From assembly GCA_937902895.1 (NCBI GenBank), contig CALELF010000144.1, forward strand, positions 1 through 62,698: a stretch of DNA of 62,698 nucleotides, written 5' to 3'. This stretch comes from an uncultured Synergistaceae bacterium. Its GTDB lineage: Bacteria > Synergistota > Synergistia > Synergistales > Synergistaceae. This document shows, in pieces, positions 18,382 to 49,221 of this stretch (position 1 is its first letter; each line of letters begins with the position of its first letter). The notes beneath the pieces are model-generated. The model saw only the letters and a list, made by a program, of their open reading frames with translations. It had not been told where the DNA came from and made no database searches. The position numbers and the translations under genes are program-made.

Positions 18382-18434
18382 AATTTTTTGCAAAAAAAGC
18401 ACAATTTTGTTTCTGTCGGGCAATAATAAATTTT

Positions 18435-18454
18435 ATAGGTCAAAATAGGTCAAA
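18435..18454 (+). repeat. Perfect tandem 10-mer ATAGGTCAAA x2
   Basis: Read directly from the sequence. It lies in the long alaS / giant-gene intergenic region. Confidence 0.9.
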
Positions 18455-18898: not shown

Positions 18899-18910
18899 CC
18901 CCCCCCCCCC
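18899..18910 (+). repeat. Homopolymeric C12 (G12 on the - strand) tract
   Basis: 12 consecutive C, read directly. It lies 579 nt upstream of the giant-gene ATG in non-coding DNA. Confidence 0.95.
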
Positions 18911-18979
18911 TCGTTAATAGGGGTAAAAACATTTTACAGGACAAATATACCTATGAGGCAAAAGTATAAGCTTATAGAG

Positions 18980-19000
18980 GCGTTGAGCGTTGAGCGTTGT
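18980..19000 (+). repeat. Heptamer tandem repeat GCGTTGA x ~3
   Basis: GCGTTGA GCGTTGA GCGTTGT, read directly. Confidence 0.9.
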
Positions 19001-19372
19001 GTGCGTTTTTTGTGTTGCTACGACTAGTTTTTATGCAAAGGCCTATCAAAAAATTTGTGTAACATTACATTTTATTGTTCGCAAATGTCTTTTATGTATT
19101 GCTTGCGTATGTTTTGTGCCTTTGGCACTTTTTCTGCTCAAAATTACGCACATAATCACCCTCCTCCGCCTTGAACAATTGTAATAAATATAAGTTGACA
19201 AGGTAAAACACTTTACAGGTTTAGGGTGAATATATTATGTAAGCAATACTGAAAAGAAGCCACACATTCAAAAACAAAAAAATGCGATAGAATATACGCT
19301 AAATACTTTATAAAAATAAATAAAATCCGCAAAAAACAAATTTTATGCAATTAAAATTTATAATAAAAAAGC

Positions 19373-19400
19373 TTGAAATTTGACAAAGTCTTGTTATAAT
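19373..19400 (+). promoter_or_regulatory. Putative strong sigma-70 promoter of the giant exoprotein gene (extended -10)
   Basis: TTGAAA (19373-19378), a 16-nt spacer, then TGT-TATAAT (19392-19400), 89 nt upstream of the ATG. An A/T-rich UP-like tract (TTTATAATAAAAAAGC) lies just upstream. Confidence 0.55.
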
Positions 19401-19488
19401 TCTCGTAACTTGTAATGCGTAGTATGCCCTACAAAGTGGGGCAACTTAAATTGCAAATAAATATATTACAGAAAGGTGTTGTTGGCTT

Positions 19489-19593
19489 ATGAAAAAGCAG
19501 CAGCGGATTGTTTCAAAGTTTAGGAGAGTGTTAAGCATTCTTTGTTTAATTGCGATGCTTTCACCAGATCCATTTGTTGTTCGTGCATGGGCA
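19489..19593 (+). other. Sec signal peptide of the giant protein (aa 1-35)
   Basis: The sequence MKKQQRIVSKFRRVLSILCLIAMLSPDPFVVRAWA|A has a long basic n-region, a hydrophobic core and an AxA-type site (AWA). There is no lipobox. Confidence 0.7.
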
Positions 19594-22500
19594 GCCACTC
19601 CGGCAGCTCCAGATGTAACGAATATCCAGATGGATACGAAGTTTGGTGGTAATACGGTAAAGGATACCGGAATGGCCCCCAAAAATAATCCAAATGGAAA
19701 AGTGCTTAATATAGAAGCACAACAGATTAAGGACAAAACCGGTGTTAACGTCTTTAAGCAATTTGACGTTAAGAAAGGCGATGTCGTTAATATGTTGTTC
19801 CAGAAAACGGGGTCGGATGGTGTTGTTAAATCAGCCGACACGCTCATTAATGTCATGAGAGGAGCGAAATTTAACATCGCTGGTGAAATCAATGCTCTAT
19901 ATAAGAAAGGACAGATTGGCGGCAATATGTTCTTTCTTAGTGACAAAGGCTTCGTCTTACAGCAAAGCGGTGTTATGAACGTTGGTTCCCTCTTTGTAAT
20001 GACGCCTTCGCGTAGTGCACTTGATGAATTCTTTTCTTATAGTGCAAACGGCATTAAAGGAACAACTTCAGAAGGTGTAGCTGGAGAGACAGGTGCATTA
20101 GAATGGGCCAAGTTGGCTAACTTCACAAAGAACCCAACAACCATTGCTTTAAACAGTTCTGGTACCATTACAATAAACGGAACGATCAATGCCTCTGCTG
20201 ATGTTCTTGCCAGAGCGGGACACGAGTTAGAAGTCAACGGTCTTATTAACGCTGGTAGCATTGTTGATTTTTCTAACCTTGTTCATATCCCTGATGATTT
20301 AAACCTTTCTGATAAAACACAACAGACTTCTGGTAAGGCTAGTGCGTTTGTTATAGGCGGTGACTCTGCCTATATTAGCGAGACAGTGGCGATACCAGGC
20401 ATGCCCAAAGAAACAACCTACTACTTTAAGACAACATCTGAAAATACAGAGATAAATTATAAGAGAACCTTAACAGCCAGTACGCTTTCCTCAGATGGAA
20501 AGACAATTACAAGAACATATACATGGACATCACCAGATGGAAAGGCGAGTTTCACCGAGCAAACACAAGTTGCTGTTGCAACCACCTCAAACCCAAATCC
20601 AAAAGAAAGCCATGTGAAATACGGCGGGACAGTGCCAAGTGGCTTTAACGCAAGTAACTATAAAGAGTCTTATGTGAGCGAGACAGTATCAAACTTCACA
20701 ACAGTTACTCCATCAACATCTGTCTTAATGTATTATACAGATGGTACTAATTGGTATGATCCAAGTGGCGCTGTATTAGCAGAAGAGCCAACCGGCAGAC
20801 AGGGTTATTCTGTTGTAACTGTTGCCAATAAGCAAACCAATTATTACACGCAAGATGGAACGTTTGTTGGTACAATTAAAAAAGAGTTAACAGGAACTGC
20901 TGACGGAAAGAATCAAACCATAAAAGACGTATGGACAACAGATAATGACGCGTATAAAAATGTGTCTGTAGTCAACTATACCCTAGACACTAAAAAAGAA
21001 ACCACAAGGGTTGATTTTGGAACAGGTGTTGACCTTGAGAAAACAAAAACAGTAATATATAAAGATAGCAAAGGAAATGACAAGTATTCACAGGTTGTAG
21101 TTACGGAAAAGAACGACGTTAGCAACGCGGTTTCCCTTGAGACCACAACTTGGGGTGATACGGGAGCTGTAACAAAAACAACAAGAAGTTATTCCTATGA
21201 AGCAGTCATAATAGATGGTGGTACTGTTAAACCAAAGAACACAGGTGCTGGAGTGTTGGATAACATTGTGGACACCTTTGTTTCTGGTTGGGGGGACGAA
21301 GAAGCACCTACTGCTTACATATATAGTAAGGGCAAATGGAAGGTCGAGCTTACAGGTGCTGAAGTCACAGATAATGACATACTTACGACGCTAAACGACT
21401 ATCGCACCAATCAAGAGAGTGTTTGGAGCGAAAAAATCAACGATGTTATATATTCTGTAACAGACGTTAACGGCACAGTATTTAATTATAACAAGACGAC
21501 TAATGAATTTTCTGTAGTTCAGACAACAGACGGAAAAGAAATAAAGACAGGAAGCTACGAGTATGTTGATTCATTGGGACAGAAGAAAACAGCAACAGTG
21601 CCAACCAGCACAAGTGCTCTTATTAACCTTGCTGGCAAAAATGTTACCTTTTCAGATTTAGTCCAGACAGCAGATACAAATCTCGGGACAAATCTTCCAA
21701 AGAAGCTTCTCGCAGCCCAGACAAATTCTGATGGTACATTAAAGAAAGATGGTGACAACAAGCCACAGCTGGTGAAATTTTCTGGCATACAGGGTAGTGG
21801 CAATATCACCTTGTCTGCTTATGCAAAAAATAATGTAAAGAATTACGACGAACCAGAAGCACCAGCAGAAGCAAAGTTGATTGAAAAACCATCAGACAAG
21901 ACAATAGGCGATGCTCCAGAAGCGCCAGAAAAGCCAACTGCCCCAGAAAAGCCAACAAATTCAGAAGGCGAAGAGCTCACAAAACCAGAGGATCCAAATG
22001 GTCAGCCTATGGTTGGTGGTGTGGAAAACCCAGGAGAGGAGCCACAGTTCACTCTTGAAGAGCCTCAAAAGCCAAAAGAATTTACCGGAAAGGCTCCAGA
22101 ACCATTCACCATGACCGAACCAACAAAACCAAGTGATAGTTATTATTATCAGCACTATGATGATTCTGAAGCAAAAGAAAGATATGAGAACTCAACAGCT
22201 TATAAAGATTATTTGTCTGAAAAACAAGCTTATGACACAGCTAAAAAGGCACACGATGAAGCTGTTATAGCTTATGATTCTGCTAAGTCAAAATATGAAG
22301 CAGATTTGAAGCAGTACGAGAAAGACAAAGAGGACTACGAAGCTACTCTCAATATGTATGCCTTCCTCCATGCAGAGTGGGTGGAACAAAAGGCTGCTTA
22401 TGATGAAGCAGTTAGTAAGCAAGACGAAAAGAATAAAGAAAATTACGTAAAAGATTGGAAAAATTACTATAAAGCACTAGATGAGTGGAATAATGGCGGA

Positions 22501-25500
22501 AAAGAAAAGGCTGAAGCAAAATATCAAAAAGACTACGAGGACTATGCTAAAAAGAAGGCAGAGTATGATGCAAAGGTAAAAGCTCTTGCTGATCAGCAAA
22601 AGAAATATACAAAAACCGCTACAGAAGGTCTTGTTTCCCAGTTGGTGGAAGAGGAAGTCAGAGTCCACAAAGTGGATGACAAGGACTTGAATGTAGTAGA
22701 TGCCAACGGTGACTACGTATATGAGAAAAACTCTGATGGCACTTATAAAGTAAAGGGTGACCCAACAGATACCACAACCTATTCCGGACAGTATACACAA
22801 CTTGTGGATTATTTACAGAACAGCAGAACCGATTTAACAATGGATGAGTCGGTTGACAAGAGTGCATACAAGAAACTTGTTGATGCCGGTCTTACGAAAA
22901 AGGCACAAGCGAACTTGACAGAGGATGTAACCCTCTATGTTGAAGCAAGGGTTGCCGGACTAGTTAGTAGTCAGTCTGACAAGATAGAATTAAAGACGAA
23001 GTCTGAAACGGTTTCTTACACCAATACTGTTGGTGCAGACGGCAGTGTAACCTTACAGGAAAACACAAAGACAGAGTCCTACTATGTATATAGTAAGGGC
23101 GGTAAATTCTACGACAAGAATGGCAAATCAGAGTATGCTGTAAAAAATGAAGATGGCAAGTTTATTCATAAGGAGACTGGTGAAGTCTTGCCAGACGATG
23201 CGGATGCATCTTTAAGAAAAATGAAAGATTACACAGCGGCAGATGAAGCCATACAACTTTCCAGAGATGAGATTGTTGGGGTTGTTATGACTGTCGGTAC
23301 CTATAAAGACGACGTCACTACGGAAGCAAACAAGATTAGAAAAGACAAAGAGCAGGCAGCAGAGATAGCCTTGAATGCAGTTAAGTCCTATGCACAAACC
23401 CAGGTTCAGAAAACGCTTGGCTCAATGTATGTTTCTAAAGATGGTACGAAGCTTTGCAATACGGCAGAAGAGGCTGGCGAAGGTGCTGTGAAGGCAGCAT
23501 CTGGCACAGGCAAGGATTTCAAATTATCAGATAATGCTATAAGCTACTATTATAACACTCTATATGAAAAGGATAAGGTTAGCTACACTAACAAGTATGT
23601 TGCTTGGCAGAACAAGCACCTTGCTTGGGAGAAGAAGACAGCAGCAGCTCTTTATAATAGTGTAGATAATTCTACCACCTTAAAAATTGGTGCAGATGCT
23701 GTTATCAAGGGCACAGGTGCTGTTAACATCAATGCCACAGCTGAGACAAATTCTCGCATGGCAACAAACTCTGCAGATTTAATAATTGCAGATAAGTACG
23801 AATATATTGGTACCGCTGAAGCAGGTAGAACCTATGAAATTACCTATGATGATACCAAGCTCACACTGACCTCTTATAAATTAAATGATGCAGGCGAAAG
23901 GGTAAATGTTACGACGGAAGATTTTACCTTCAACGAAGATGGAACCTTACCAGGAAGTGCAGCAAGCAAGATAGCAGCACATAAAGGTGCAACAATTTCA
24001 GGTGCAACGGTAAATATTACATCAGATGCAAAAGCAACAATTGAAGATGATGGTAAATTTGCCGGTGCTGCCAAGTTTGCCTATATCTTTGAGCAATACT
24101 TAAAGGGAAAGATAAACAGCTTCTCTACCGAGAAGATTACACAATTATTTAGTAATCTTCAACTTAGTGACACAGATTTTGACGCAGCAGCAACAGCTGA
24201 AGCGTTAATAGAACTTCATGATTTAAATCCTGAGCTTTCATTCTTAGAGCTTATTGATCTTGCTATTGATGGTAAGGTTACCGCAAAGGCAACAGGGCTT
24301 GAGGTAAAGATTAAGCGTCCTCTTCTTACTGGTACAGTGGCAACCGCATATAGATTGATAAAGGAAAAGGGTGCAAACCCTGCAAAATGGTCATTTAATG
24401 ACGTTAAGGCATTAATAAATAACGCTGCAAGTGAATTCCATAACTTGGCTGTCGTTGCAGATGCCATTTTGGCAGTACAGAATGTCTATGAGTCATATAA
24501 GGACTTTAAAGATCTGCTCAAGTCAGACATATCTAACCTAAAGAATGGTGCCGCAAATCTTCTCCACTTCTATAATAATCTTGGTCAGGAAGTTGATTTG
24601 ACGAAACAGGAGATAAAAGATCTCATCAACAGTTCCCCGGATAAAACTGCCCTTACAACCTATGGCTTCACGATTGAGCAACTGCAAAAAATGCTTAATT
24701 TTAAAGATTACGTTGACGAAAACGTTGAAAAATACAATAACCATCAGATGTCACAGACGGAGCTTGTTAGCCTTATACAGACTAATTATGACAGCTTAGC
24801 AAAAACTTTAGGTTTGCCGGTTTCTGGCAATTATATTGATTTGATTACAGGTACTCTTGATAAATTTAAGAAAAGCTACAACAATATTATCAAAGATGGT
24901 CAAAAATTTACTGACACAGATGCACTTTTAGAAGATCTAAAAACATTTGAGTCTAAGCTTGTTGGTATGGCTAGTAGCCTCTTGGCTGCTGGTGCAGCAA
25001 ATGCTACCAATGACATTATCGATGGTGTAGCTAAAGACACTATTGAGAAGTTGGCAGATAGGCTAGATATAGATGTTGATTTTGCTTTCATAGACAATAA
25101 GTCAACCTTGACAGTTGGTGAAGGTGCAAGCATCTCTGCCACGAAAAAGCCAAAATACGAAGATGTCCAAGATACAGAAGTGTATTTGGGCACAGAAACT
25201 GATGATCTAAAATACGAGCACAAGACAGTTTCTTGGGCATTTGACTTGATTGACCAGGTTGGCAAAGATGGCAAGTATGTCTATAACACGATTAAGGTTC
25301 CACAAAAACAACTTGACACAAGTGCAAGTGCAGCGGATCTTTTGTCTGCTCAGCTTGCTGCTGCAAATGGCACGCAGGTTTATTTAACAGCAGGACTCTT
25401 TGGCTATTTGACAGACGAGGAAGGCTACCTATTAGTAAAGGATGTTAATGGTAAAAATGTCAAGTTGAAGGATTCAGCTTCTCCAAACGGAATAAAGCTT

Positions 25501-43500: not shown

Positions 43501-46500
43501 GATATTGAGGGTGTCAATTTCTTGAATAGCTATGACTACATAGCTGCCAACACAATCACCATAGGTAACTACACTGGCATTGGTAATGGTAAGGGTATGG
43601 CGAATGCACTTCGTGTTTCCATTAACCCAGGCAATACAAATCATCAGAATATCTTGAATTTTGGTACCGCTTCTATGTCAAACAATTCTGGTAACATTTA
43701 TGTCTATGGTATGGGTAATACAACAGACACCTTGAGACTCGCAGATGTTAAATACACTGCAAGCGGAAAGACTCAGAACATTAGTCTTGAGTCACAAGGC
43801 AATATCGAGCTTAAGGGTGAAATAGCTAAAGTTAAGAACCTTGAGCTTGAGGCGAAGTCCAATGTGAAGTTTGCTGGTCATACATCAATAAAGACAGACC
43901 TTGAGAATCTAACTGTTAAGGCTCTTAACGGAGGCATCGCAGACGATTTTGATACTGTCGGAACAGGTGCTGATTCAATTTACGTCACACCTGCGATCTA
44001 CGCAAAGAATGTAACGCTTGAAGCAAGAAATGGAGCTATAGCTCTTGGTGCACGTAATATTGATCCAAATGTCAATGATGAGTTTGTATATGGCGATTAC
44101 AAGTGGGGCAACACAAAGATTGCTGCAAAGGGTGATGTAAGAATTCATGCAAATGCCTATGATGCAAACGGCGTGAATATCACAGCAATTGATAAGTTTA
44201 GTGATCTTGACCCAACAAAGATCTTCACTGGCAACCTCAGCTTCTCAACCAACACAAATATGTCAATCAAGGACATCAAATCCGCTGCTAACCTTACAGC
44301 TACCATAAAAGCAACACAGACGCTTGATGAAAATGGCAAGCCAACGATAGTTGACAAGTATAATGAATTTGGTCAGAAAGACGGTTTTGTCTATGAAACA
44401 AAAAAGACGACCGGTGCAAGCATGTCCATTGACAATGTGTTGATTGGTAGCGAAAATGCTAAAAATGGCACCATGAAGGTCTTGGTGGAAAACAAGGCAG
44501 AAGATGCTACAGTTTCTGTTAAAAATGCAGGTGGATACAAGCTTCACTTAAGAACAGACGCAAAAGGAACAAAGGCTGATATTAATTATGACGCTTCTAA
44601 GTTTGTGGTTGACGACATTGAAGCCTACGGCTTTGTTGAAATGTTGATTGAATTGTTTGGTGCCACCCCAGACTTTAACCTCAGCACCTTGGCAGCAGAA
44701 TACTTAACAATCAGATCAAATGTCGATGGTCTAAAATTAGGCTTAACTAACGGAAATGGCACAAATCAAGTGAGAACATTGCGTTCATTGATAATTGACG
44801 CTTGGGGCGAGGCAAGTGAAATAGCATTAGCTGATGTCCTTGCAACAGAATTCATCCAGGTCAATACTCATAACACAACTGGCTCACGCGTTACCCTTGG
44901 TAATGTCAAGGTTGCCGGCACACCAAAACCAGGTTATGAGAGCGATCCAGTTGTTGGTGGAATAGAAGCAATAGCGGAATCCTTGGTAATGTCTGGCGAC
45001 ATAATTGCTTCTGACTACATCAAGACATCTTCACAAGCTTTGTTAGCATCAGGTGCAACGCTGCAGGCTGGTGATGGCGGAATCGATCTTAAGGTTGCAA
45101 CACAAAAATCCGGCGTGATTCCTGGCACTAGCGCTTTAGTTGATGCAGATGGCAAGATCTATGACAATAGACGCAACCAAATTGGTGAATTTACTGCTAT
45201 TGCTGGAAAGTCACTCACATACGGTGATGCGATCTTTGAGAATGTAACGATTGATTCTGCTGATAAGCTTGCTGTTAACGCAAAGGGCGACATTAGTGTG
45301 ACAAATGATGAGGAAGGTACGGTGTCTGCTGTTAAAAATGCTACATTTACAGCAGGTGATAATGCAACCTTCAACAATGTGTCACTTACATCAACAGCAG
45401 GTGCATCAACAGTTACAGCAAGTGCAGGAAAGGCAAGCTTTGACAATACGTCACTTACATCAGCAGGTGCAATGACAGTCAAAGCTGGTACAGATGCAAC
45501 CTTCAACAATACGTCACTCGATTCAGGCGATAAGCTAACAGTTGATGCAACGAAAGACATTAGTGTAATAGGCAATTCTAATGTGGTATCTCTTAATGAT
45601 GCTACATTTAATGCTGGCAAGGGTGGTAATATCCAGTTTAACTCAACATTCAATTTTGGTAAAGACGACTATACCGCAGACCTCTATATGAAGGCTGGTC
45701 ATAGCATCACAACAACTGAGAACTTGGAGTTCAAAGGTGAGTTGTCACAGATTCTTACAGATGCAGCAACAGATGATCAGGCAATTTCTAACGCGGAATC
45801 TATCCGAGTTGCAAAACTTACACAGACTTCTAACGGTGGCACTATTACTAATAACAGTCAAGTCCGAGCGACCAATGGTGATATTATTCAAAAAATTGCT
45901 AAGAATGGCGTTATTGACAACAAAAGTCTTGTATATGCTGAAAAAGGTAGTATTACACAGAATGCAAATAGCATCAAAAACAATAATTCCTCTTCAGTTG
46001 ATGACAGTTTGGCACTCTTTGCAAAGAAGAACATCACTCAGACTACCAATGGCAATGGTGAAATTATCAATAACGGTATGACTATTGCACGTGAAGGCAA
46101 CATTACCCAGACAGTCAATGGTGATGGTGTGATTTATAACAAGAGCCACGTTTTGGCTGGAAGGGGATCTGCAGACACATTATTTGTTGCTTCTGGCGAC
46201 ATTAGACAGACCATCAAGGGTGACGGTAACATCATTCATGGCACTGGTGCTTCAACAGAAGTTGACAAGTCTAGCGAAAAAGTTATTTTTAACGAAGATG
46301 GTTCAGTTAATACGTTAGCTACGGTTGTTTTACTTGCCTTGAACGGATCTGACGACAATAACAACAATAACAATAATAACAATAATAACAATGGTGGCTC
46401 TAATAAGGATATTAGTGGCAAAACCGCACAACTTGGATTGCGACTTAATGGAGACGGTACACTTAATAAGGTTCTTACCATTATTGGATTAGCTGGTAAA

Positions 46501-49173
46501 GATAAAGATTCAGATGATAATGATATAGTTTATTGTACTATAGCGGACCTAGGTGTCGTCAGTGACATGCTGAAGATAAAAGATGGTGCCCTTAACGTGG
46601 AAGAAACATTTAGCAATATACTTGCTCATTCTGGTTTAGGAGCAGGATCTGCTGATCCTAATGAAGCTCTCAAACAATGGATTGAGGGTGGTAAAGGCAT
46701 AAAACCAAGTGATGACTTCCTTGATATAATTGCCCTCACATACGATAGCAATGGCGCTGTTGTTGGCTTTAATAAGACACTTACTGTCTCCAATATGCTT
46801 AATAAGGCATTTATGGAAGCACCAAAAGCAAAGGATATACCTGAAGTTGTGATAGTTGATGGCAAGATTGATATAGACCAAACCCTTAAGGCAGTTCTCC
46901 GAGCAACGCTTAATGATAACAAACAAGCTATTATGGAGGGACTTAAGAGAAATAATGGAAAATATCTTGCAAGCACTGCTACTGACATTGATGACGACGC
47001 CCTTGAGAAAATAATGGATAAGGCATTTGCCATAGATTACCACGGTAACGTCATGGCAAAGAACATCTACCAGACAGTTGAGGGTGGAAGTATTGCTAGT
47101 ATGGATGCAGATGGCAACCTTGTCTTAAATGCCTCTGAGAATACTGAAGGTCTTAAGAAGCTAAACGCACTTGAGAACTGGAAGAACAGATTAGTTGCAG
47201 ATGAGAACATTGAGTTGTATGTTGGCAAGGGCGACTTGATCATCGATTCTGAAGTCAACGCTGGCAAGAAACTCTTTGCAAAAGCTGCTGATGGTGACCT
47301 CCATGTCAAGTGGTACATCCAGGCCCACAACGAAAACAATGATGCGATGGTTGAGCTTGAAACTGGTGGCAACGGTGACATTGAAATCGACTGGAACGGT
47401 GCTGATTTACAGACAAAACTCAGCATTGACATGGACACAGAAGCCGCAACAAAATCATTGCAGCAGATACAGAATATCTTGACCGGTGATATGCTTGATA
47501 AAGATTCTAAGTCAATATTGTACACAAAACTCAGCGAAGTATTAGCAGTTCTCTACTTTGCTAAAAAGTCAACATCTACTCAGCAAGCTGCAGTTCGTGG
47601 TGTAACAGGTAATAGCCGTAGTGACTTCTGGAGTGCACTTGAAGGTACAATGGATAATGATTCTTCCTTGGCTACCTTGAAAACTGTATTTGGTAAGTTA
47701 AAGAATGGAGAATCTATAACATCAGACGAAAAACAGAAGTATCAGACAATTGTTGCTGATATAATGGCAAGTTGGGACGATATCAAGACCCCTGCACAAG
47801 AACTCTTAGCAACACTTAAGGGGAAAGAAGGTACCACATCAGCTCTTGGAGATGACCTCTTTGCCGTTGACAAGAGTAACCATGCAGACTACAGCTACGC
47901 AATCATTGCAGACAAACTCCAGCTTACAGTTGGTGGCGAGTCTAATGATCCAAGCGACAAGAAGATAAAGATTGACGGTGACATCCTTGTTTATGACTAC
48001 TATGGTGTTGCAGCAAGACAGACAGTTTCAAACTTTGTTGACCAGATGAATGGTGCAGATGACGTAGCATTTAATCTTTCACTCAAGGGAGCTAAGAAAA
48101 AAGATGGCACCTTTGGCAGAATGGAATCCTATGACATGTATAACCTACGTTCAAGACTGCATGTTGACTTCGACGAAGTTGTACAGCATGATGGTTGGAA
48201 GAACGCTTATGGTTACAACAGCTCCTACATTGGCAACACGAAACTAAATAATGCTTCTGTCTATATTGACCCAGCTACTGGAATGCAGTATGAACTCAAT
48301 GCAGACAGATTTGCAGAAAACCACGAGGGTGCAATCAGATCACGTCACGCTGGATTCAATATAGTTGATTTTGCAATAGAGAGAACCAACTTTAACCTTG
48401 AAACCTTGGCAGATCACATTGAGCTCGAAGGGCTTTCTGTTGGAACAGACATGTTCATAGCTTTGGCAGATGAATATGACATTGGTGGCTTAAGAGGTAA
48501 CGACAGATTCTTTAACGTCGCAGTTATCTACGGTGACACGTGGACTGGTCTCATTCCAGAGAGATTCCGCCACAATGGTGTTAATGCATACTTTATAGAC
48601 AGAGACCACAGTGTGACTCATACCTTGAAAATCTACAGAGAAGGTAACTTGTTTGTAACAGACATGGTTGCAATGGATAAAACACCAGGTGCTGTCATAC
48701 GTGACCTTAATGGCAAAGAAGTTCGCACCGCTCTTGAAATTGCTGCTATGAACGATAGCACCATCAGAGCAACTGTCAGCGATAAACTTAACGCATCAAA
48801 GAAATTTGATTCTGAAAAAGAATTAAATAAGAAAGATTCTGCAATTACCACAACAGATGAGTTGGTGATAGTTGATGGTGTTAAGGTCAAGCCATTGAAG
48901 GAAGAGCAATACATTAGCACTGTTAATGTTGAAGGTCTTGGCGTTATCTTGTCAAAGGATGCGGATATTACGATTGAAATCGACGGTAAGATAGTTGAAC
49001 TTACTCCAGAACAAGCAGCAGAAAAGAGAGTAAGAAAGACAAATGGTGAAGGAAACATTGAAGCAAATTCCGAAGAAAATGCTTCCAATGTCCTTGGCAA
49101 CAGCAAGAGATGGGACGCAAATCTCTTAAAGCCAGCCAAAAATTCAATTACCGGACGTTTGATCACTCGTTAA
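19489..49173 (+). CDS. Giant secreted filamentous-haemagglutinin / leukotoxin-LktA-like exoprotein (TpsA type), 9,894 aa
   Basis: The ORF runs for 9,894 codons without interruption. ATG 19489 has a GAAAGGTG RBS 10 nt upstream. There is a Sec signal peptide. Residues ~80-190 (GVNVFKQFDVKKGDVVNMLFQ ... TLINVMRGAKFNIAGEINA ... IGGNMFFLSDKGFVLQQSGVMNVGSLFV) align by eye with the FhaB TPS domain (INWQSFNIG..ATVNF / LNRV.GG..S.I.G.L.ANG.VFLINPNG..FG.GA.V.VG.L). A hairpin terminator starts 15 nt after the TAA. Confidence 0.9.
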   Translation: MKKQQRIVSKFRRVLSILCLIAMLSPDPFVVRAWAATPAAPDVTNIQMDTKFGGNTVKDTGMAPKNNPNGKVLNIEAQQIKDKTGVNVFKQFDVKKGDVVNMLFQKTGSDGVVKSADTLINVMRGAKFNIAGEINALYKKGQIGGNMFFLSDKGFVLQQSGVMNVGSLFVMTPSRSALDEFFSYSANGIKGTTSEGVAGETGALEWAKLANFTKNPTTIALNSSGTITINGTINASADVLARAGHELEVNGLINAGSIVDFSNLVHIPDDLNLSDKTQQTSGKASAFVIGGDSAYISETVAIPGMPKETTYYFKTTSENTEINYKRTLTASTLSSDGKTITRTYTWTSPDGKASFTEQTQVAVATTSNPNPKESHVKYGGTVPSGFNASNYKESYVSETVSNFTTVTPSTSVLMYYTDGTNWYDPSGAVLAEEPTGRQGYSVVTVANKQTNYYTQDGTFVGTIKKELTGTADGKNQTIKDVWTTDNDAYKNVSVVNYTLDTKKETTRVDFGTGVDLEKTKTVIYKDSKGNDKYSQVVVTEKNDVSNAVSLETTTWGDTGAVTKTTRSYSYEAVIIDGGTVKPKNTGAGVLDNIVDTFVSGWGDEEAPTAYIYSKGKWKVELTGAEVTDNDILTTLNDYRTNQESVWSEKINDVIYSVTDVNGTVFNYNKTTNEFSVVQTTDGKEIKTGSYEYVDSLGQKKTATVPTSTSALINLAGKNVTFSDLVQTADTNLGTNLPKKLLAAQTNSDGTLKKDGDNKPQLVKFSGIQGSGNITLSAYAKNNVKNYDEPEAPAEAKLIEKPSDKTIGDAPEAPEKPTAPEKPTNSEGEELTKPEDPNGQPMVGGVENPGEEPQFTLEEPQKPKEFTGKAPEPFTMTEPTKPSDSYYYQHYDDSEAKERYENSTAYKDYLSEKQAYDTAKKAHDEAVIAYDSAKSKYEADLKQYEKDKEDYEATLNMYAFLHAEWVEQKAAYDEAVSKQDEKNKENYVKDWKNYYKALDEWNNGGKEKAEAKYQKDYEDYAKKKAEYDAKVKALADQQKKYTKTATEGLVSQLVEEEVRVHKVDDKDLNVVDANGDYVYEKNSDGTYKVKGDPTDTTTYSGQYTQLVDYLQNSRTDLTMDESVDKSAYKKLVDAGLTKKAQANLTEDVTLYVEARVAGLVSSQSDKIELKTKSETVSYTNTVGADGSVTLQENTKTESYYVYSKGGKFYDKNGKSEYAVKNEDGKFIHKETGEVLPDDADASLRKMKDYTAADEAIQLSRDEIVGVVMTVGTYKDDVTTEANKIRKDKEQAAEIALNAVKSYAQTQVQKTLGSMYVSKDGTKLCNTAEEAGEGAVKAASGTGKDFKLSDNAISYYYNTLYEKDKVSYTNKYVAWQNKHLAWEKKTAAALYNSVDNSTTLKIGADAVIKGTGAVNINATAETNSRMATNSADLIIADKYEYIGTAEAGRTYEITYDDTKLTLTSYKLNDAGERVNVTTEDFTFNEDGTLPGSAASKIAAHKGATISGATVNITSDAKATIEDDGKFAGAAKFAYIFEQYLKGKINSFSTEKITQLFSNLQLSDTDFDAAATAEALIELHDLNPELSFLELIDLAIDGKVTAKATGLEVKIKRPLLTGTVATAYRLIKEKGANPAKWSFNDVKALINNAASEFHNLAVVADAILAVQNVYESYKDFKDLLKSDISNLKNGAANLLHFYNNLGQEVDLTKQEIKDLINSSPDKTALTTYGFTIEQLQKMLNFKDYVDENVEKYNNHQMSQTELVSLIQTNYDSLAKTLGLPVSGNYIDLITGTLDKFKKSYNNIIKDGQKFTDTDALLEDLKTFESKLVGMASSLLAAGAANATNDIIDGVAKDTIEKLADRLDIDVDFAFIDNKSTLTVGEGASISATKKPKYEDVQDTEVYLGTETDDLKYEHKTVSWAFDLIDQVGKDGKYVYNTIKVPQKQLDTSASAADLLSAQLAAANGTQVYLTAGLFGYLTDEEGYLLVKDVNGKNVKLKDSASPNGIKLDTSSAVNLANSLKEALVSHKAAIAEAYLKSGYSGGLISLSNYLTNSVKKASNGLTYATDKNGNFVNSAGSAITNKYYVAGEPNGDGTFKLVEVSDSAASVAGYTLTADMQVTGYHKVVALKAETKDGKTTYSPVYEKDAKGNFANIVGQGVLAEKVYQKMDDDGKVYWARYSNVSNLGAGNFNDEKITFKTQADLDKLVFLNQLGAATGDDAVKYMKSSADSYTPLANIKGTLDAGIDAIAGLLDKLVASINGLTGTDFNSPAKTWNSKYMVYQDSGTTANNTAWTVDQLTGAAKDSKGNPVYVPVMKTVDISGKGYETEAERKAVYANGDKYYSLVGTYDVPAVTSSSFQTLGKVYTSSGNVAKNTKKLGTDYYLADTKGNVVSCATKLAKDSEGKEALYTMQVTVPYIAKGEVPVLDASGKAKTDADGKAITQTSYYYMDAEGNYLKPTTTYYKKEVNGTKVTWTECNEADYKKLSSDNGWAVQTWAKTDKQYTDNTNFASASNSLTTTIKVGDKEVEAFIDNRDTSKSATGLEPLKVTFKAYTTDVDGNFLNSSGKITTSSKEYTEAVLREAKATVNIASNATTTIVIGADAGEARFDADKKEPLTEKTSALPAASVNIASSSNEAILNIKDGATITTKGQATIGANATKTVKTTSKTGSPNIALKTLVKQKNGEAPEGFVEDYAFPIYGTTSVSGDEPIAYACYVDASGEVIPIKKITKDGKESYQLVLDWSKTQEVDDGKGGTKEVHNEYAEKLKKQYVTDAKNKAQTKYINDALDKFKKDPKNKDKYSDKYLSTHPSLWKTEEYGYTSEGLKAAVEAAANKATEAWNEDKKAKDTDKVGVRTAALTITDPKKIIDYLFTYGVNVNTDTAWADIAFNMTTGHNTADVNIGEANISSLGQAGLSVEAKATGNYKAAASANFGTMTALESAINLMFDDSQSNLNVADGAKISSESGNLFVGATTKVKGNEVTTSSGDSTSNKLSDAQYEYYTKKLLDPYLTPTKQEESKTNEPSAAYKLGEKIGETIGEFGSKLFEVVEEKLDDFGNMMKKNFSFGAAVGVVSQEFTSHITIGNNAQITSSKGGVTISAKTDNADTNFKTTGTMIQVTTTENDTPKTVAIETAVLVGNVTQDATLDIEKGATVSGKNVAIKADALKEYTRVEDLIQGIKDQLMILWGTLQDDVSKTAVAKLMTRVNKLIEKGKSKGMMGALSSLNYGDVETVKSWWFEFREINLELSSLKAFTNNHFANTVKAIEDLVDEALKMTDPNNYANYNARTVAGLANNKNQYGKEIEGAAASVNITGSVVVSNDNARAKVNIGKDDGEGTVNISSTKGTTTIAANGAVNSVNFLGNGQSMFEANESQGVGAGASVNVQGSDVVGRVEIGEGTVINSASDLKLEATGNEMLVGAVFGAGKSTTKTTTNNNNNNNNNNNQGDQGGQGGQQSTSEIQGLSIQGMVNVMHGNRDAEVNVAKSSQLTSTTAGVSVNAGSTDYITAASGALAQGDGGSIGAGVAVIDYDLKSLVNFAEDTVVTAKGNTSFTTSQQGAMNTIAIAGAGAPDADGNGALDKLKGGTDSMKKKVTDTFDNLFASADEKALKKKSGEGQTAAQERNEANSGSSTDIGEGLEGAGDLQNQGTDSAKEKASAWAGAGSISINLLTTASKVDIEKAKITVTNGDVTVKASDSNFIGAWAGGGAINVTGNTKNNVGVAGAVALNIIDRTVDAIISQSAINGANNLHINALSAGAAVTAGVALTANTGADGTAAGVEISANVNKVDSTVNAKADRLTVNKVLDDQNINIYSGPDTNLDVIAQTVDTQVTGGITVGVTSGKEKAVGVGVVFTGTFLKNNADARVIGGDYANMGDFVVKSAMAPKQVAAGVGVGVATSGEGQAVAANGVVLVTTTHNKGNAIIEAYHEDEDDEEKAKITASGKVKVDARDSITNEDTNASTIQAQKTDRYLESVGVDADGSNILISQQKGEEQTSDDANLENTKKEVGETGYESALYRKDAADTTRTALTVNAGVVVSVAKGSGDNNSGAGGVAVAVNVMDQSQTAKISGAEINTTSQVKAEADTKSKVVNVAAGAAAASGGENATAVGGSVIVNSMDNKTNATIEKSTIKAGELAAVATNDAIDVNVTGQVSVGKNSAGLSFIYNQNSSAANAKVSANTITFTDPTGLSNLPSSFDSLTVKAANMAGLYSVALQGSGSTGGNVSVSGVVAVNVGTQDAEASLEGEAENKKSVITNVGDVKVTADNSSKEYAIAGNAAVGTSKVAAGAGVAYNDIGGSGTGDAKQKAVATLSNVKFTNPVENSSVDVISKDDGKILAVAAGVSIAGVSETSSGLNVAAQGSAGVALVNKDTASTVKNIEYENDDTNFHIVSENNSDERTAAVVIAAATGLSGVAGGAALGVNRIISNTTAQVIGSTISAKNLETKSTADADILNIAIGAAYAGGSAAVAGSFGINLIEENVYAKINNSTINALGNVAAVSQSDERIRNFAGAIALSAGAAAVGANVAVNQINGKTGTEVDGSVVNAEGEDEEYVTHGKIAYGELDASEGRSDDGMSSSKAQSVEKFQIKDFERGDVKNKGFIADSSSTHAIQAVLVTAGGADSAAVELGTDVNLVKGYTKTLVQNTNINTDPTKAGAVAIRATDFTNSYSFLVNAGAATTAAVAGAGSGHAISRDVTANLTGTSLKTVNAKDFEIASLVNSGISSFGLSIAVAGSVGVGAAASVAKLTANVGTGIENYNINTTGDAKVTSNRTTAIGQGANAGGAGGSVGVGAAVSVIVEDGTQYTTIKDSNIISGGELKVAASNTTRIFEEVVGAGLAGAVGVTGVVGVNNFTNSVDVKITSSVLEAKDDVNVNARNNVKMETYGGMLAGGVTAGVGATVFVNHINANTRVAADDSTITSTLGDVLIDATEARTLNGVVVGAAIAGTAGVNCNVFYTAIGSTEVAQTTYDEYQVVSTDSEDEKKQQAQANAALAKLEEADGSGENSTASRVATGQANANTVTNKSFQAAGFVQQNKDGSSKSGMSSSEAAAIAGAISTDATKTVKTTTTTSSYAQQTSVSLNSSVVTSAKKNVKVSTTSDTNVEANTGGAAGAGVAGVGISIDILDVRANSIIDINKSDVIAAGDVDIKNNVTSSKGINLRNVQGTVGGIAGVGVTLGKLDIANNQMINIHEATIASSKPAYSTKTLTAEDITRLGNSGVATVYARMRRSTDMNGYMINEQGQHLDADGNVTTDSSKYVKSDTEYVFDCFVDANGYKVDFEGNYILDSDGKRINIASDSATYTEDAAGNIINSDKYIAGKRYIDANGEEKIQPLELADGQGSGIADMRYYLGEVAGAFGYQFDKDSDGNTVAYLTNANGIYVDKNGAPIEAYEKYMPVYNTDATSEDYGKITGYNQISYDETLKKNVLTPITVAQYEVILAEGAAARVKYRELEHSGGSVTVASNDTTKAELNVDAVAGGFVGIGSTFAVLTKASNSSINISGNTVMSADGDIDVRAENNSSAKSNFIGGAGGAVAGSVGLAFLKDTSNTEVEIMQNNQRAANDPKLPFLKGNSNENSVTALTALGNLNIVASNNPHNSVRAISVAGGAIAGIVVTAFNFNTLGSTIKADNYNTIAGNKVNVNATVGDASGNDYTSKVFVVAAAGGAIAVGVNVALANTKSNVSVDLGNTDFRLYQGLVDTDVTLSAQNYALQDMSITSVTGGAIASGSNIVIARNTGTVKASLGDGSAEQSSDPLGATRATNLTVAAGNNAQNKINASGNSGGYIAVSPFAAFVSAKLEGDTEIDLKGKIDVDNNLNVDKTSLYTSNIKAWTLAVGKFAGAGAFAFNTINADQGANSGVNVLGNITAKNANITSTNSFSVNRAKGYEQTASGLILTYGLGIGGLASAITARSNSDVNFKAGSSLTTDGNQTIIARTLGDINNDTNGDATGLIAASASVSKANVKFDQGVNIEQGASLKDKHIASDESDLSHLTITAYNDTNLSNYAYSASYGGVALSISTSLNDVKRNNKVNIAGSVFTYGDAKIYTGLDTTAHLQNFKADMRAIAAAEAIIGIPVPVSNRTFTFSNLVNITGTGSVLAGQDINITTTDGLESVYYDATAKTLYGGGQTAKLVGNVHGDDVAQYKGKTSTNEVTVDGIVKTGLIKSLDITIADDANGGKLLDGYSYDQAGTNNGGYKLSIVAKTTDENGSDLLLDEEGYVLDSEGHRTDKQVDNALINEIKNNSQYYEYKYAESLYSRYTEINSALASTTLTKAERLALQAERDSLVAKLTPFCNTNTDGTLELVAESSIPAFKLADFQISNGSVYITTDKIKGSNGGTGKIMSVATEDINITDSSNAYLVIGNIGILGNAGHVYVRDAEMRKVYKNYNDTNAALTTANGKISNVAMYASISNNSVPDLTITKNYTGEVSKQVYFAKQDVSQDDPTVSGSEKEYTVKHAFAPTLHVAGRISNMSGNVTLDNSGSAGAGEVKVAAIGELGYDEAVISSLKTSIIAKNVEIGYSAGTYNVAGDPRMASGVQDLWHTGDYSINNFIGEGQGYKFGDKKTYTAQTSKSTTSDTTSGIMALESVRISSEVINVNGRIQSGINRHTATIDSVKENGNIVTFAFTPVDTKANVSYDKANAANLAAEELQKKYNDANGEKGTTYKFSSYKSGDKYYIKAEAVIDTSVASNSSEGYVINQGGLKNNGSSYVNEIQLYYDKATKSVKMQDIASKGGEVTLIGNIVSTGNGEIVVASGAATIDVTNDTNYTLKAGEIDNQGGYGKISLTDAQQNVKTQLYYSDGNNIAYGTVVKLGGNVDTHGVKSDKLLLAIEDGAVTRGTTNDVKDYITFTSENGKITSANFLPEKNSALSWSDSRVTDFSVAETEYKRKKWVFGWRDKSGWEYQYTTSKRTDAGDSNTPTDPSKLEDLTLTKRDFGDKDFAADVSSEATSSTKDSGSYTPGTDGYKLGKKEEPGWSKGWATRRTYRRDLVYSTRREYDVTYTLKADSSIKLSSLGNYNLAAEKNKGLSANMISLKSGGNIELTGNITSAGDAKFKADATGSITQSNGRTLVGQDIDLNASTGSIGTVTDDTYEGSKAGAISIVSNDTHYTLDADNNKVADGVVDLKAKASSDLNVDVRNGSVSKDVYAIDYETGNIYLDVAATKDATLTAAANLKLDNVTAGERAVITAEKDIKGTNAFKTQLGKDETAKADLTARRINVASEDGSIKLNVNAGQEITNSGASSLSASLNAQADGNVELRQVSGNMRLGTVYSENGNVTLRAEDTDAGLIVDVLPSTATVYDSAAEDSVKKWQDTGLLGSDDIILPGGKAKASLKDRMDAYEAGTVTAEEAGLTAYEKKLIDDKLAFIADRTNEYNEYIAALNAHEGKVKSYEANIELKFNSYKAAEADYQAKHAAWVAAGGTGDEPQRSESLKALKAQFTKAGTTDQVYADADAYIADNPYKDTVLESYQYSRAQKLDANGNLLYTKGGEEYYIKETNNFTLTFTKTAGTGDDSYTSFGDLNGAVTTLNENAPEGTSYRLVRVGYADNKDIYEIEQAQVVEVDGKSTTQRTSYATYNFSREMGTSTQTVYKADGTEASDVSAADLTPTYVYKSRFEQIDNVAADGTVTLKSVNLIKDAKGNITGTSLYKNAQAYYNAGENGAALAKLSATPNYKATKDKLLYAVEDSIIHKKAGQSSDIEVKQANVSAKNIDIRAKGIGYANVDARVIEVTDDTKSDDLKLLANTPSVDVVAEVTYGYQLDENGNKISRENLSNSTTGEQFSKLSASEKADIDAYNQTLAEAGLEAIDYENYLVTQDITKFYVAGKRTLGLNLVDQTNGKITIEATGSKAGKNAKEAGAAGDVFIASRDLDATTTAGEALYFDKVNATDAVRILGKNGVYAKDGAIFTANSFYIEGGQGGIGGAGNALALNFIGSNNTRYAYLNAASDIFVKNATIDKSDFVLLGVATNGSFDIDACGTRVVMTDTVNNTALRKSVLRYFDESDIEGVNFLNSYDYIAANTITIGNYTGIGNGKGMANALRVSINPGNTNHQNILNFGTASMSNNSGNIYVYGMGNTTDTLRLADVKYTASGKTQNISLESQGNIELKGEIAKVKNLELEAKSNVKFAGHTSIKTDLENLTVKALNGGIADDFDTVGTGADSIYVTPAIYAKNVTLEARNGAIALGARNIDPNVNDEFVYGDYKWGNTKIAAKGDVRIHANAYDANGVNITAIDKFSDLDPTKIFTGNLSFSTNTNMSIKDIKSAANLTATIKATQTLDENGKPTIVDKYNEFGQKDGFVYETKKTTGASMSIDNVLIGSENAKNGTMKVLVENKAEDATVSVKNAGGYKLHLRTDAKGTKADINYDASKFVVDDIEAYGFVEMLIELFGATPDFNLSTLAAEYLTIRSNVDGLKLGLTNGNGTNQVRTLRSLIIDAWGEASEIALADVLATEFIQVNTHNTTGSRVTLGNVKVAGTPKPGYESDPVVGGIEAIAESLVMSGDIIASDYIKTSSQALLASGATLQAGDGGIDLKVATQKSGVIPGTSALVDADGKIYDNRRNQIGEFTAIAGKSLTYGDAIFENVTIDSADKLAVNAKGDISVTNDEEGTVSAVKNATFTAGDNATFNNVSLTSTAGASTVTASAGKASFDNTSLTSAGAMTVKAGTDATFNNTSLDSGDKLTVDATKDISVIGNSNVVSLNDATFNAGKGGNIQFNSTFNFGKDDYTADLYMKAGHSITTTENLEFKGELSQILTDAATDDQAISNAESIRVAKLTQTSNGGTITNNSQVRATNGDIIQKIAKNGVIDNKSLVYAEKGSITQNANSIKNNNSSSVDDSLALFAKKNITQTTNGNGEIINNGMTIAREGNITQTVNGDGVIYNKSHVLAGRGSADTLFVASGDIRQTIKGDGNIIHGTGASTEVDKSSEKVIFNEDGSVNTLATVVLLALNGSDDNNNNNNNNNNNNGGSNKDISGKTAQLGLRLNGDGTLNKVLTIIGLAGKDKDSDDNDIVYCTIADLGVVSDMLKIKDGALNVEETFSNILAHSGLGAGSADPNEALKQWIEGGKGIKPSDDFLDIIALTYDSNGAVVGFNKTLTVSNMLNKAFMEAPKAKDIPEVVIVDGKIDIDQTLKAVLRATLNDNKQAIMEGLKRNNGKYLASTATDIDDDALEKIMDKAFAIDYHGNVMAKNIYQTVEGGSIASMDADGNLVLNASENTEGLKKLNALENWKNRLVADENIELYVGKGDLIIDSEVNAGKKLFAKAADGDLHVKWYIQAHNENNDAMVELETGGNGDIEIDWNGADLQTKLSIDMDTEAATKSLQQIQNILTGDMLDKDSKSILYTKLSEVLAVLYFAKKSTSTQQAAVRGVTGNSRSDFWSALEGTMDNDSSLATLKTVFGKLKNGESITSDEKQKYQTIVADIMASWDDIKTPAQELLATLKGKEGTTSALGDDLFAVDKSNHADYSYAIIADKLQLTVGGESNDPSDKKIKIDGDILVYDYYGVAARQTVSNFVDQMNGADDVAFNLSLKGAKKKDGTFGRMESYDMYNLRSRLHVDFDEVVQHDGWKNAYGYNSSYIGNTKLNNASVYIDPATGMQYELNADRFAENHEGAIRSRHAGFNIVDFAIERTNFNLETLADHIELEGLSVGTDMFIALADEYDIGGLRGNDRFFNVAVIYGDTWTGLIPERFRHNGVNAYFIDRDHSVTHTLKIYREGNLFVTDMVAMDKTPGAVIRDLNGKEVRTALEIAAMNDSTIRATVSDKLNASKKFDSEKELNKKDSAITTTDELVIVDGVKVKPLKEEQYISTVNVEGLGVILSKDADITIEIDGKIVELTPEQAAEKRVRKTNGEGNIEANSEENASNVLGNSKRWDANLLKPAKNSITGRLITR
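19594..20300 (+). other. TPS (haemagglutination-activity) secretion-domain-like region (aa ~36-270)
   Basis: See the by-eye alignment under the CDS. The canonical NPNG/NPNL motifs are replaced (FFLSDKGFV). Confidence 0.6.
21850..22137 (+). other. Pro/Glu/Lys-rich linker (aa 788-883)
   Basis: EPEAPAEAKLIEKPSDKTIGDAPEAPEKPTAPEKPTNSEGEELTKPEDPNGQP...EEPQKPKEFTGKAPEPFTMTEPTKPSD. Confidence 0.85.
22138..22608 (+). other. Tyr/Lys/Glu/Ala-rich helical region resembling the antigen I/II A-repeats (aa 884-1040)
   Basis: The region contains ...AYDSAKSKYEADLKQYEKDKEDYEATL...QKAAYDEAVSKQDEKNKENY...AEAKYQKDYEDYAKKKAEYDAKVKALADQQKKY. Compare, from memory, the S. mutans SpaP A-repeats: KAAYEAAVAANNAKN, LKQYEADL, AEYETKLAQYQ. 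Confidence 0.5.
29390..37630 (+). repeat. Gly/Ala/Val-rich degenerate beta-helix repeat core (aa ~3300-6050), with insertions
   Basis: There are dozens of degenerate units of the form G.(A/G)(A/V)GV(A/G)V.VN....N.T.A.I..S.I.A.G.V.V.A, for example AGGVAVAVNVMDQSQTAKISGAEINTTSQVKAEA, AVGGSVIVNSMDNKTNATIEKSTIKAGELAAVA and GAAVSVIVEDGTQYTTIKDSNIISGGELKVAA. Confidence 0.75.
29776..29808 (+). repeat. Poly-Asn tract N11 (aa 3430-3440), followed by QGDQGGQGGQQ
   Basis: Codons are AAC AAC AAC AAT AAT AAT AAC AAC AAT AAT AAC, read directly. Confidence 0.95.
41551..41820 (+). other. Second antigen I/II A-repeat-like helical segment (aa ~7355-7444)
   Basis: AYEKKLIDDKLAFIADRTNEYNEYIAALNAHEGKVKSYEANIELKFNSYKAAEADYQAKHAAWVAAGG. 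It contains the heptapeptide EADYQAK found in SpaP A-repeats, as I recall them. Confidence 0.45.
45240..45660 (+). repeat. Tandem units of about 20 aa / 60 nt (FHA-type beta-helix rungs)
   Basis: The protein reads AGDNATFNNVSLTSTAGASTVTAS / AGKASFDNTSLTSAGAMTVK / AGTDATFNNTSLDSGDKLTVDA / ...DATFNAGKGG. The DNA motif GCAACCTTCAACAAT recurs at 45364 and 45496. Confidence 0.75.
46357..46392 (+). repeat. Poly-Asn tract N12 (aa 8957-8968)
   Basis: Codons are AAT AAC AAC AAT AAC AAT AAT AAC AAT AAT AAC AAT, flanked by GSDD and GGSNKD. Confidence 0.95.
47990..49170 (+). other. Non-repetitive C-terminal region (about 390 aa) of unknown function
   Basis: The composition switches to a globular mix of aromatic, charged and His residues (DYYGVAARQTVSNFVDQMNG ... 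HDGWKNAYGYNSSYIGN ... RFAENHEGAIRSRHAGFNIVDFAIERTNF ... FRHNGVNAYFIDRDHSVTHTLKIYREGNLFVTDMVAMD). The protein ends ...SITGRLITR. Confidence 0.5.
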
Positions 49174-49187
49174 TCCTGTAAACAAAA

Positions 49188-49221
49188 ATAGACGGACACT
49201 TATGTGTCCGTCTATTTTTTG
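49188..49221 (+). terminator. Rho-independent terminator of the giant gene
   Basis: A perfect 12-bp stem ATAGACGGACAC (49188-49199) pairs with GTGTCCGTCTAT (49204-49215) around the loop TTAT, followed by TTTTT. Confidence 0.85.

Follow-up and report, generated by a model that had tools for sequence, protein, structure and literature searches.

Passengers of type Vb secretion, also called two-partner secretion (TPS), are the closest described counterparts of the gene analysed here. Classical TpsA passengers (i.e. FhaB/FHA, HMW1, ShlA and CdiA) have a Sec signal and an N-terminal TPS domain ahead of a long, beta-rich passenger, and the coils of FHA comprise ∼19–20 residues. The leukotoxin LktA of Fusobacterium necrophorum is 3,241 aa long and is encoded in an lktB–lktA–lktC operon. 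We analysed a 62,698-nt stretch of DNA from an uncultured Synergistaceae bacterium (contig CALELF010000144.1 of assembly GCA_937902895.1; hereafter the window), in which one open reading frame (ORF) at 19489..49173 on the forward strand runs from an ATG start through 9,894 sense codons to a lone terminal stop. This giant ORF takes up 29,685 of the 62,698 nt (47%), with the same coordinates as in a first-pass annotation of the window. Our results make it likely that the gene encodes a type Vb (TPS) passenger of the LktA family in the Synergistaceae, which would form a very long, acidic and probably adhesive surface fibre.

Compared with LktA and the NCBIfam LktA family, the giant protein likewise begins with a signal peptide and a secretion domain and has a repeat core rich in Gly, Ala and Val, and its gene diverges much faster than the neighbouring genes, as is the case for LktA (PMC11350119). 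Unlike LktA, it is about three times longer, has a secretion domain and a core that are separated by ∼3,000 Synergistaceae-specific residues, and continues after the core for ∼3,800 aa that have almost no detected relatives. The gene is bordered by an opposite-strand alaS upstream and a convergent aminotransferase gene downstream, in contrast to the F. necrophorum operon, and its host belongs to the Synergistota, not to the Fusobacteriota or Negativicutes.

The plan of the classical TpsA proteins is also recognizable: besides the three elements listed above, relatives of the N-terminal domain adjoin POTRA_2 + ShlB transporters, and most of them match TIGR01901 or Pfam TPS. By contrast, the giant protein itself misses the Pfam TPS, Fil_haemagg and Fil_haemagg_2 models, has coils of ∼53 residues and has no linked TpsB gene. 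Its mass of 1.047 MDa (isoelectric point 4.9, with 10 Cys among the 9,894 aa) exceeds the 100–650 kDa that a review of TPS gives for TpsA proteins (PMC5422565), in agreement with the first-pass view of a roughly threefold-oversized protein. The 'giant genes' of Omnitrophota encode proteins of >10,000 aa with transmembrane and SecA-like domains, beside loci that resemble type II secretion systems (bioRxiv 10.1101/2023.11.21.568195). The giant protein is similar to these in its extreme length, its general lack of domain annotation and its proposed surface or attachment role; it differs from them as a Sec/TPS-type passenger and, at 9,894 aa, falls just under the 10,000-aa threshold.

Family membership and expression signals

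Searches with NCBIfam models (curated cut-offs: 60 bits for NF012204, 50 for NF012206 and 29.1 for TIGR01901) assign the giant protein to the LktA family. NF012204, the LktA-family N-terminal FxxPxG domain, matches aa 74–244 with 106.3 bits when a 990-aa tile is searched and 110.2 bits when the 320-aa N-terminus is searched. NF012206 (LktA_tand_53, a 53-residue tandem repeat) matches nine stretches of aa 3961–4950 with 138.6 bits and is weaker in aa 2971–3960 (25.7 bits). A divergent TPS domain of the LktA 'FxxPxG' type is placed at aa ∼55–300 (19651..20388, +). Other collections gave nothing comparable. Pfam finds no match at E ≤ 0.01 on ten ∼990-aa tiles of the giant protein and only noise at E ≤ 10 on five of these (including the N-terminal, core and rung tiles), and this holds for PF05594 (Fil_haemagg) and PF13332 (Fil_haemagg_2) at both thresholds. 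Together with PF05860, these were the models that the first-pass annotation had proposed to search, and all three are negative for the giant protein. No Pfam match, Fil_haemagg included, was found in the orthologs at L002 and L003, the two closest loci, both of which come from metagenome-assembled genomes (MAGs) of Synergistaceae. A PHROGs search of the giant protein had no match, and a PDB sequence search with the whole protein returned nothing real.

An exhaustive phmmer scan of aa 1–780 against 1.84 billion representative proteins returned 389 matches at E ≤ 1e-3; the 150 matches listed cover aa ∼55–300 alone, and the matches are mostly short metagenomic fragments (max 1,637 aa) that are uninformative on the full lengths of family members. 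A word-indexed protein search with the N-terminus found one fragment. The N-terminal regions of 22 relatives align and share the motifs N-x-F..F, N-L-V-N, I-G-G-N-x-F-F-L-S-x-x-G and G-S-L..T-P. NF012204 is found in all 22, TIGR01901 in 20 (best E 3.8e-12) and Pfam TPS (PF05860) in nine (best E 2.5e-15). This suggests that the N-terminal domain belongs to a divergent branch of genuine TPS domains, within which the window's copy is, judged by its sequence, an outlier.

We then scanned one genome per GTDB species and obtained 40 related loci. Directly upstream and on the same strand, 19 of them encode a protein of 549–585 aa, and two representatives of these proteins carry POTRA_2 and ShlB/FhaC domains, which identifies the upstream proteins as TpsB transporters and therefore ties this family of N-terminal domains to the type Vb route. 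The first-pass description of a TPS-like or LktA-like exoprotein is supported both by this linkage in relatives and by the scores of NF012204 and NF012206. No upstream TpsB-type gene was found in the other 21 of the 40 loci, where ten candidate upstream ORFs encode unrelated proteins; an unlinked transporter is therefore plausible and would be common in the family, and by analogy an unlinked TpsB gene may plausibly lie elsewhere in the genome of the window organism. The frame stays open for >3,500 aa in 33 of the 40 loci and runs off the examined sequence (a lower bound), so genes of >10 kb are normal for the family. The first-pass suggestion of an undescribed system does not stand, because the giant protein exceeds the curated cut-offs of a family that already exists and in which very long genes are routine.

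Four of the loci have a histidine kinase gene (MASE11/HisKA_3/HATPase_c) at the position of the TpsB gene (L013 3811–4767, L019 394–1746, L026 7476–8825 and L029 991–2337); they are from Riflebacteria or uncultured bacteria. By analogy, these kinases may recall LktC, for which a role as a sensor-type regulator has been proposed (PMC11350119).

The expression signals named at first pass are all present. A sigma-70-type promoter with an extended -10 element lies at 19373..19400 (+; TTGAAA-16-TATAAT with an upstream TG, 11/12 match), and it differs by a single spacer base from that of L002, which is syntenic with the window. The 5′ leader (19401..19488, +), read from the sequence, carries an AAAGGTG ribosome-binding site (RBS) at a distance of 10 nt from the ATG, and L002 has nearly the same leader and RBS. 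An intrinsic terminator with a GC-rich 16-pair stem, a 4-nt loop and a T-run follows the ORF at 49184..49219 (+). Translation begins with a Sec-type signal peptide (aa 1–35, 19489..19593, +), recognized by inspection as MKKQQRIVSKFRRVLSILCLIAMLSPDPFVVRAWA|AT, with a basic n-region, a hydrophobic core and a c-region with probable cleavage at AWA|AT. It is conserved across four orthologs, i.e. those of the window, L002, L003 and L001 (Logan SRR27361835), the last being the closest database homolog.

Architecture of the passenger

The Gly/Ala/Val-rich, beta-solenoid-like core occupies aa ∼3301–6100 (29389..37788, +) and consists of diverged ∼47–53-residue repeats of the LktA_tand_53 type. Our in-house repeat profile detects 15 significant copies in the giant protein. 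The core seen at first pass is thus confirmed, with internal repeats that are 20–29% identical, and Negativicutes relatives match within it at aa 4000–4700. One core segment (aa 4734–4940, 33688..34308, +) was modelled with AlphaFold2 from an alignment of this segment with nine diverged internal paralog segments of the same protein, which gave a mean predicted local distance difference test score (pLDDT) of 84.7 and a predicted template-modelling score of 0.74. The model is all-beta and repeats strictly every ∼53 residues, with a ∼20-residue strand, a 4-residue strand and another ∼20-residue strand in each repeat. Foldseek found no meaningful match for it (template-modelling scores ≤0.17 against the PDB and ≤0.33 against BFVD), and the weak PDB list consists almost wholly of parallel beta-solenoids, i.e. 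FapC, CsgA, SufB/D, Ag43, ice-binding proteins and pectate lyases.

In the model, then, the core is made of beta-rich 53-residue coils, not of FHA-type ∼20-residue rungs, and these coils may stack into a solenoid that is wide and flat. If such a solenoid exists, the 2,800-aa core would be ∼25 nm long, and the total reach of the protein would then depend on its other parts.

The compositional modules listed at first pass (i.e. a Thr/Tyr/Lys insert, a Pro-rich linker, a Tyr/Lys/Glu/Ala segment and two poly-Asn tracts) are likewise all present, most of them between the secretion domain and the core. The Thr/Tyr/Lys-rich insert, delimited by composition, spans aa 301–786 (20389..21846, +), with 18% Thr and 6% Tyr over aa 301–600. 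No relative of it appeared in the phmmer scan of 1.84 billion representatives; L003 is collinear with the window across it at 39% identity in a full-length tblastn, and the L001 homolog has no such insert. A Pro/Glu/Lys-rich segment with 19 Pro follows at aa 787–881 (21847..22131, +), and then a Tyr-heptad helical segment at aa 882–1040 (22132..22608, +) that is rich in Tyr/Lys/Glu/Ala, contains no Pro and has 22 Tyr mostly spaced by 7 or 14 residues.

The Pro segment and the Tyr-heptad segment also occur together in L002 (aa 706–940; 91 + 144 aa) and L003 (aa 751–891; 54 + 87 aa). Their absolute lengths vary almost two-fold among the three orthologs, and the Tyr-heptad/Pro length ratio is nearly constant (1.67 in the window, 1.58 in L002 and 1.61 in L003), which suggests that the two segments may pair into a stalk. 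In the stalk of streptococcal antigen I/II, an alpha-helical A region is paired with a polyproline-II P region, and the window's Pro-rich segment, adjoining a Tyr-periodic helix with which it co-varies in length, is reminiscent of that arrangement. Unlike in antigen I/II, the segments of the window are contiguous with no intervening head domain, and the ratio is ∼1.6 as against ∼2.1. The module has no sequence similarity to any PDB chain.

The remaining stretch before the core, aa 1041–3300 (22609..29388, +), is non-repetitive and conserved in Synergistaceae-type orthologs only: it is collinear with L002 and L003 at 43–44% identity, and in 38 other family loci it has one tile match, in L012 at aa ∼3001–3200. 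It has no Pfam, NCBIfam or PHROGs match, and a profile of the three orthologs found nothing among PDB sequences. Poly-Asn tract 1 (11 Asn, aa 3430–3440, 29776..29808, +) lies in the early core. The flanks of its site are conserved, and between them L002 has Gly/Ser-rich and L003 has Ser/Gln-rich sequence, so the tract is a variable low-complexity loop and not a conserved motif. One poly-Asn tract lies near each end of the beta-rich part, at aa ∼3300–8950.

Beyond the core, aa 6101–8500 (37789..44988, +) form a largely non-repetitive and unannotated region with no Pfam, NCBIfam, PHROGs or PDB match; sporadic weak matches to other family loci occur at aa ∼6200–6400 and ∼6600–6900 only. Short-period (21–23 aa) rung-like repeats follow at aa ∼8501–8956 (44989..46356, +), where the DNA repeats D5 and D8 have spacings of 63–69 and 132 nt and aa 8618–8790 self-match aa 8523–8719. 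Of the FHA-like 20-residue rungs proposed at first pass, the short-period repeats themselves were recovered around aa 8620–8700, and the FHA assignment was not, given that no TPS or Fil_haemagg Pfam model matches. Poly-Asn tract 2, a tandem array of 12 Asn (aa 8957–8968, 46357..46392, +), precedes an orphan C-terminal region at aa 8969–9894 (46393..49170, +), in which Asp, Leu and Lys are the most abundant residues. As first noted, the C-terminus is unique: its last 894 residues (aa 9001–9894) have no homolog among 5.8 billion proteins. The orphan region has no exact-peptide relative in JGI metagenomes, two scans of which with the giant protein gave no close relatives, and it has no Pfam, NCBIfam, PHROGs or PDB match and no VENN-type or RTX motif. 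The giant protein has no VENN, ELYN, LYVN or NEALV motif, and its sole VDNN (aa 5810) is remote from the C-terminus.

Conservation and genomic neighbourhood

Comparison with relatives reveals a patchy pattern of conservation. At L002, alaS has the same position and orientation as in the window and 93% protein identity, which places the origin of the window in the Synergistaceae; L003, where the gene starts near 116,806 of the 183-kb contig JAUNHV010000004.1, is not syntenic. Nucleotide similarity to L002 collapses ∼830 nt inside the giant gene, and protein identity falls from 78% over aa 1–200 to mostly 26–56% onward to aa 3,691; a further figure for the L002 ortholog past the secretion domain is an identity of only 41–59%. 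Collinearity with L003 extends to aa 3,735, with an identity of 38–45%. We also tiled the giant protein against the relatives, of which the first ∼3,500 aa each were covered. Tiles of aa 1–300 match in all loci and those of aa 301–700 in none; aa ∼600–3700 match Synergistaceae-type loci plus L012, the latter in one tile near aa 3000–3200; aa 4000–4800 match Negativicutes relatives; aa 5900–6900 match sporadically. No tile of aa 6900–9894 has a match, a weak result given that only the first ∼3,500 aa of the relatives were covered. Overall, ∼70% of the giant protein is without annotation or distant homolog, being either lineage-specific or orphan. These regional matches (i.e. the L001 alignment, ortholog tblastn and the tiling against loci) bear out the mosaic protein of the first-pass annotation.

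The sequences thus show a conserved secretion handle and a fast-diverging passenger, and the exposed parts of the giant protein appear to be under diversifying pressure. This parallels F. necrophorum, among whose clades LktB, LktA and LktC differ by 1%, 30% and 5%, respectively (PMC11350119). In the L001 homolog (2548–6276), aa ∼278 joins aa ∼1375 directly and an in-frame TAG interrupts the gene at 3772–3774; a sequencing error could account for the stop, or the homolog may be a shorter variant or a pseudogene.

Upstream of the giant gene, alaS lies on the opposite strand (15638–18310, -). The 1.18-kb intergenic region between the two (18311–19488) is 77% identical to L002 at the nucleotide level throughout, which is high for non-coding DNA; it has no Rfam match, and the 12-C homopolymer at 18899–18910 is not conserved in L002. 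Just beyond alaS are an IS110-family transposase gene (12157–13422, -) and a group II intron (Rfam RF02001 at 13795–13967, with a reverse transcriptase/maturase ORF at 14232–15530). L002 carries mutS and mutL in the place of the transposase and the intron, so mobile elements or a rearrangement border the locus. Recent horizontal acquisition of the giant gene itself was considered and rejected: its GC content equals that of the flanks and the locus is syntenic with L002.

Downstream, a convergent class IV aminotransferase gene (49296–50141, -) has its own terminator, and pnp is also found in the flanks. Two adjacent paralogous PNP_UDP_1 phosphorylase genes (277 and 286 aa) lie at 53083–54834. 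Further on, a cluster at 55770–62093 (-) encodes an OEP/TolC-like protein, an ABC-2 permease, a fused ABC ATPase–ABC-2 protein and an HlyD-family adaptor. It is probably an efflux-type export pump unrelated to the giant protein.

Proposed mechanism, alternatives and implications

Relying on these results, we infer the secretion route in the window organism and the surface location of the product as follows. Sec would export the 1.05-MDa chain unfolded, which the near absence of Cys (10 residues) fits. The POTRA domains of a ShlB/FhaC-type TpsB barrel, whose gene would lie at another place in the genome, would then recognize the divergent TPS domain, and the chain would be threaded across the outer membrane, folding progressively outside the cell. 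The resulting fibre would consist of (i) a ∼3,000-aa lineage-specific, non-repetitive N-proximal stretch including the Pro segment paired with the Tyr-heptad helix; (ii) a ∼2,800-aa beta-solenoid-like core of 53-residue coils; and (iii) a ∼3,800-aa distal stretch that is fast-evolving or orphan. Its most likely role would be adhesion, aggregation or host-surface interaction.

Several observations weigh against this reading. TIGR01901 scores 16.7–19.2 bits on the window's TPS domain, under its cut-off of 29.1, and Pfam TPS (PF05860) does not match that domain; the family profile found no solved TPS-domain structure among PDB sequences (only one spurious match to a de novo design), and an AlphaFold2 model of the domain from a two-sequence alignment reached a pLDDT of 29. 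TpsB is absent from the 62.7-kb window, both by domain scan and by tblastn with 19 TpsB proteins, and it was not found upstream in L002 or L003 (10 kb each) or in L001 (2.5 kb). The five core models span pLDDT 35 to 85, the best being that at 84.7, and the parallel stacking of the coils is presumed from the model. An adhesin function is suggested by analogy, and LktA, the one characterized member, is described as a leukotoxin. Finally, independent collinear support for the assembly reaches aa ∼3,735 and not beyond.

The alternatives differ first in what the protein would do. It is unlikely, though not far-fetched, that it is a secreted cytotoxin acting like F. necrophorum LktA, i.e. one that is TPS-secreted and kills host leukocytes and is not an adhesin. 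Both NCBIfam LktA-family models score above their cut-offs, and LktA, the sole member characterized experimentally, is an exotoxin that induces leukocyte apoptosis (PMC11350119). However, what family members outside the Synergistaceae have in common with the giant protein is limited to its initial ∼300 aa and its core repeats; ∼70% of the giant protein is lineage-specific or orphan; there are no lktB or lktC neighbours; and NCBI's name for the family is 'filamentous adhesin'. We regard as improbable a CdiA-like polymorphic toxin, whose filament would present a C-terminal toxin domain for contact delivery into neighbouring bacteria. Such a toxin would accord with the TPS domain, the long filament, the C-terminus without a detected relative and the fast divergence of the part visible in orthologs, and polymorphic toxins linked to type V secretion are known in Negativicutes and Fusobacteria (PMC3482391). 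Yet toxin-cassette features were not found: there is no VENN or related pre-toxin motif near the C-terminus and no Pfam or NCBIfam toxin domain, the stop is directly followed by the terminator and the convergent aminotransferase gene, which leaves no downstream gene of immunity type, and there are no orphan cassettes elsewhere in the window. Next to no weight can be given to an RTX-like giant adhesin secreted by a type I system made up of the nearby OEP/HlyD/ABC genes (55.8–62.1 kb). A TolC-like OEP, an HlyD-family adaptor and ABC proteins do lie 6.6 kb downstream, but housekeeping genes lie between the two loci, the ABC components are ABC-2-type permeases and not ABC_membrane/C39 exporters of type I systems, and the giant protein has no GGxGxD repeats. 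Its N-terminal architecture, a signal peptide followed by a TPS domain, effectively refutes this candidate.

The other alternative concerns the gene itself, namely that its length of 9,894 aa results from a faulty assembly in which two or more large genes were joined in frame, or that the gene is a silent relic. The collinear comparison ends at the contig end for L002 (aa 3,691) and at the end of the compared sequence for L003 (aa 3,735), so that ortholog support stops at aa ∼3,735, and some relatives are broken, L001 by its in-frame TAG and L012 by a split into pieces. The exact AlaS protein of the window was also absent from the collection in which encoding contigs were looked up. Against this, neither chance nor relic status can explain an open frame of ∼10,000 codons at 41% GC, and both promoter and leader have been conserved. 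The giant gene's longest direct repeats at the DNA level are 30–46 nt at 60–81% identity, its only tandem DNA arrays besides the Asn tracts are two short ones (36 and 47 nt), and the internal protein repeats are 20–29% identical; the gene thus lacks long or near-identical DNA repeats that could seed a false join, which makes repeat-driven misassembly unlikely. GC content (41%) and skew are uniform along the gene, and there is no second internal signal peptide or TPS domain. An artefact or relic is accordingly very improbable, and a chimeric join beyond aa ∼3,735 seems, from the sequence, improbable as well.

In brief, a type Vb passenger of the LktA family, probably adhesive, remains our preferred reading. 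What is unusual about it is its 1.05-MDa size, its host phylum, the ∼70% of its length without annotation or distant homolog and its 53-residue-coil core without a structural match. We found no literature on such proteins or on type V secretion in Synergistota, where type V secretion appears to be uncharacterized. Bacteria often have giant repetitive surface proteins, and curated models of the family already exist; the giant protein is therefore an interesting extreme and establishes no new principle.

More tentatively, and with considerable doubt, the Synergistaceae proteins could be a structurally new class of type Vb passengers, defined by (i) a flat, wide beta-solenoid of 53-residue coils without a counterpart among solved structures, (ii) a ∼3,000-aa N-proximal module restricted to the lineage, including a self-pairing stalk of Pro segment and Tyr-heptad helix, and (iii) a ∼3,800-aa distal part with almost no detected relatives, including a ∼900-aa orphan C-terminal region that would have some activity of its own; their secretion could use an unlinked, and even non-canonical, outer-membrane transporter.

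Irrespective of class, structure determination has two concrete targets here, the core of 53-residue coils and the Pro/Tyr-helix module. The locus is also a test case for diversifying evolution, with alaS 93% identical and the passenger mostly 26–56% identical between the window and L002. With it, the LktA family reaches into the Synergistota, an understudied phylum of gut and anaerobic bacteria with an outer membrane. If the giant protein is secreted as we propose, a single chain of >1 MDa would cross one outer-membrane barrel without ATP, and it would thus probe how large a substrate type Vb secretion can handle.

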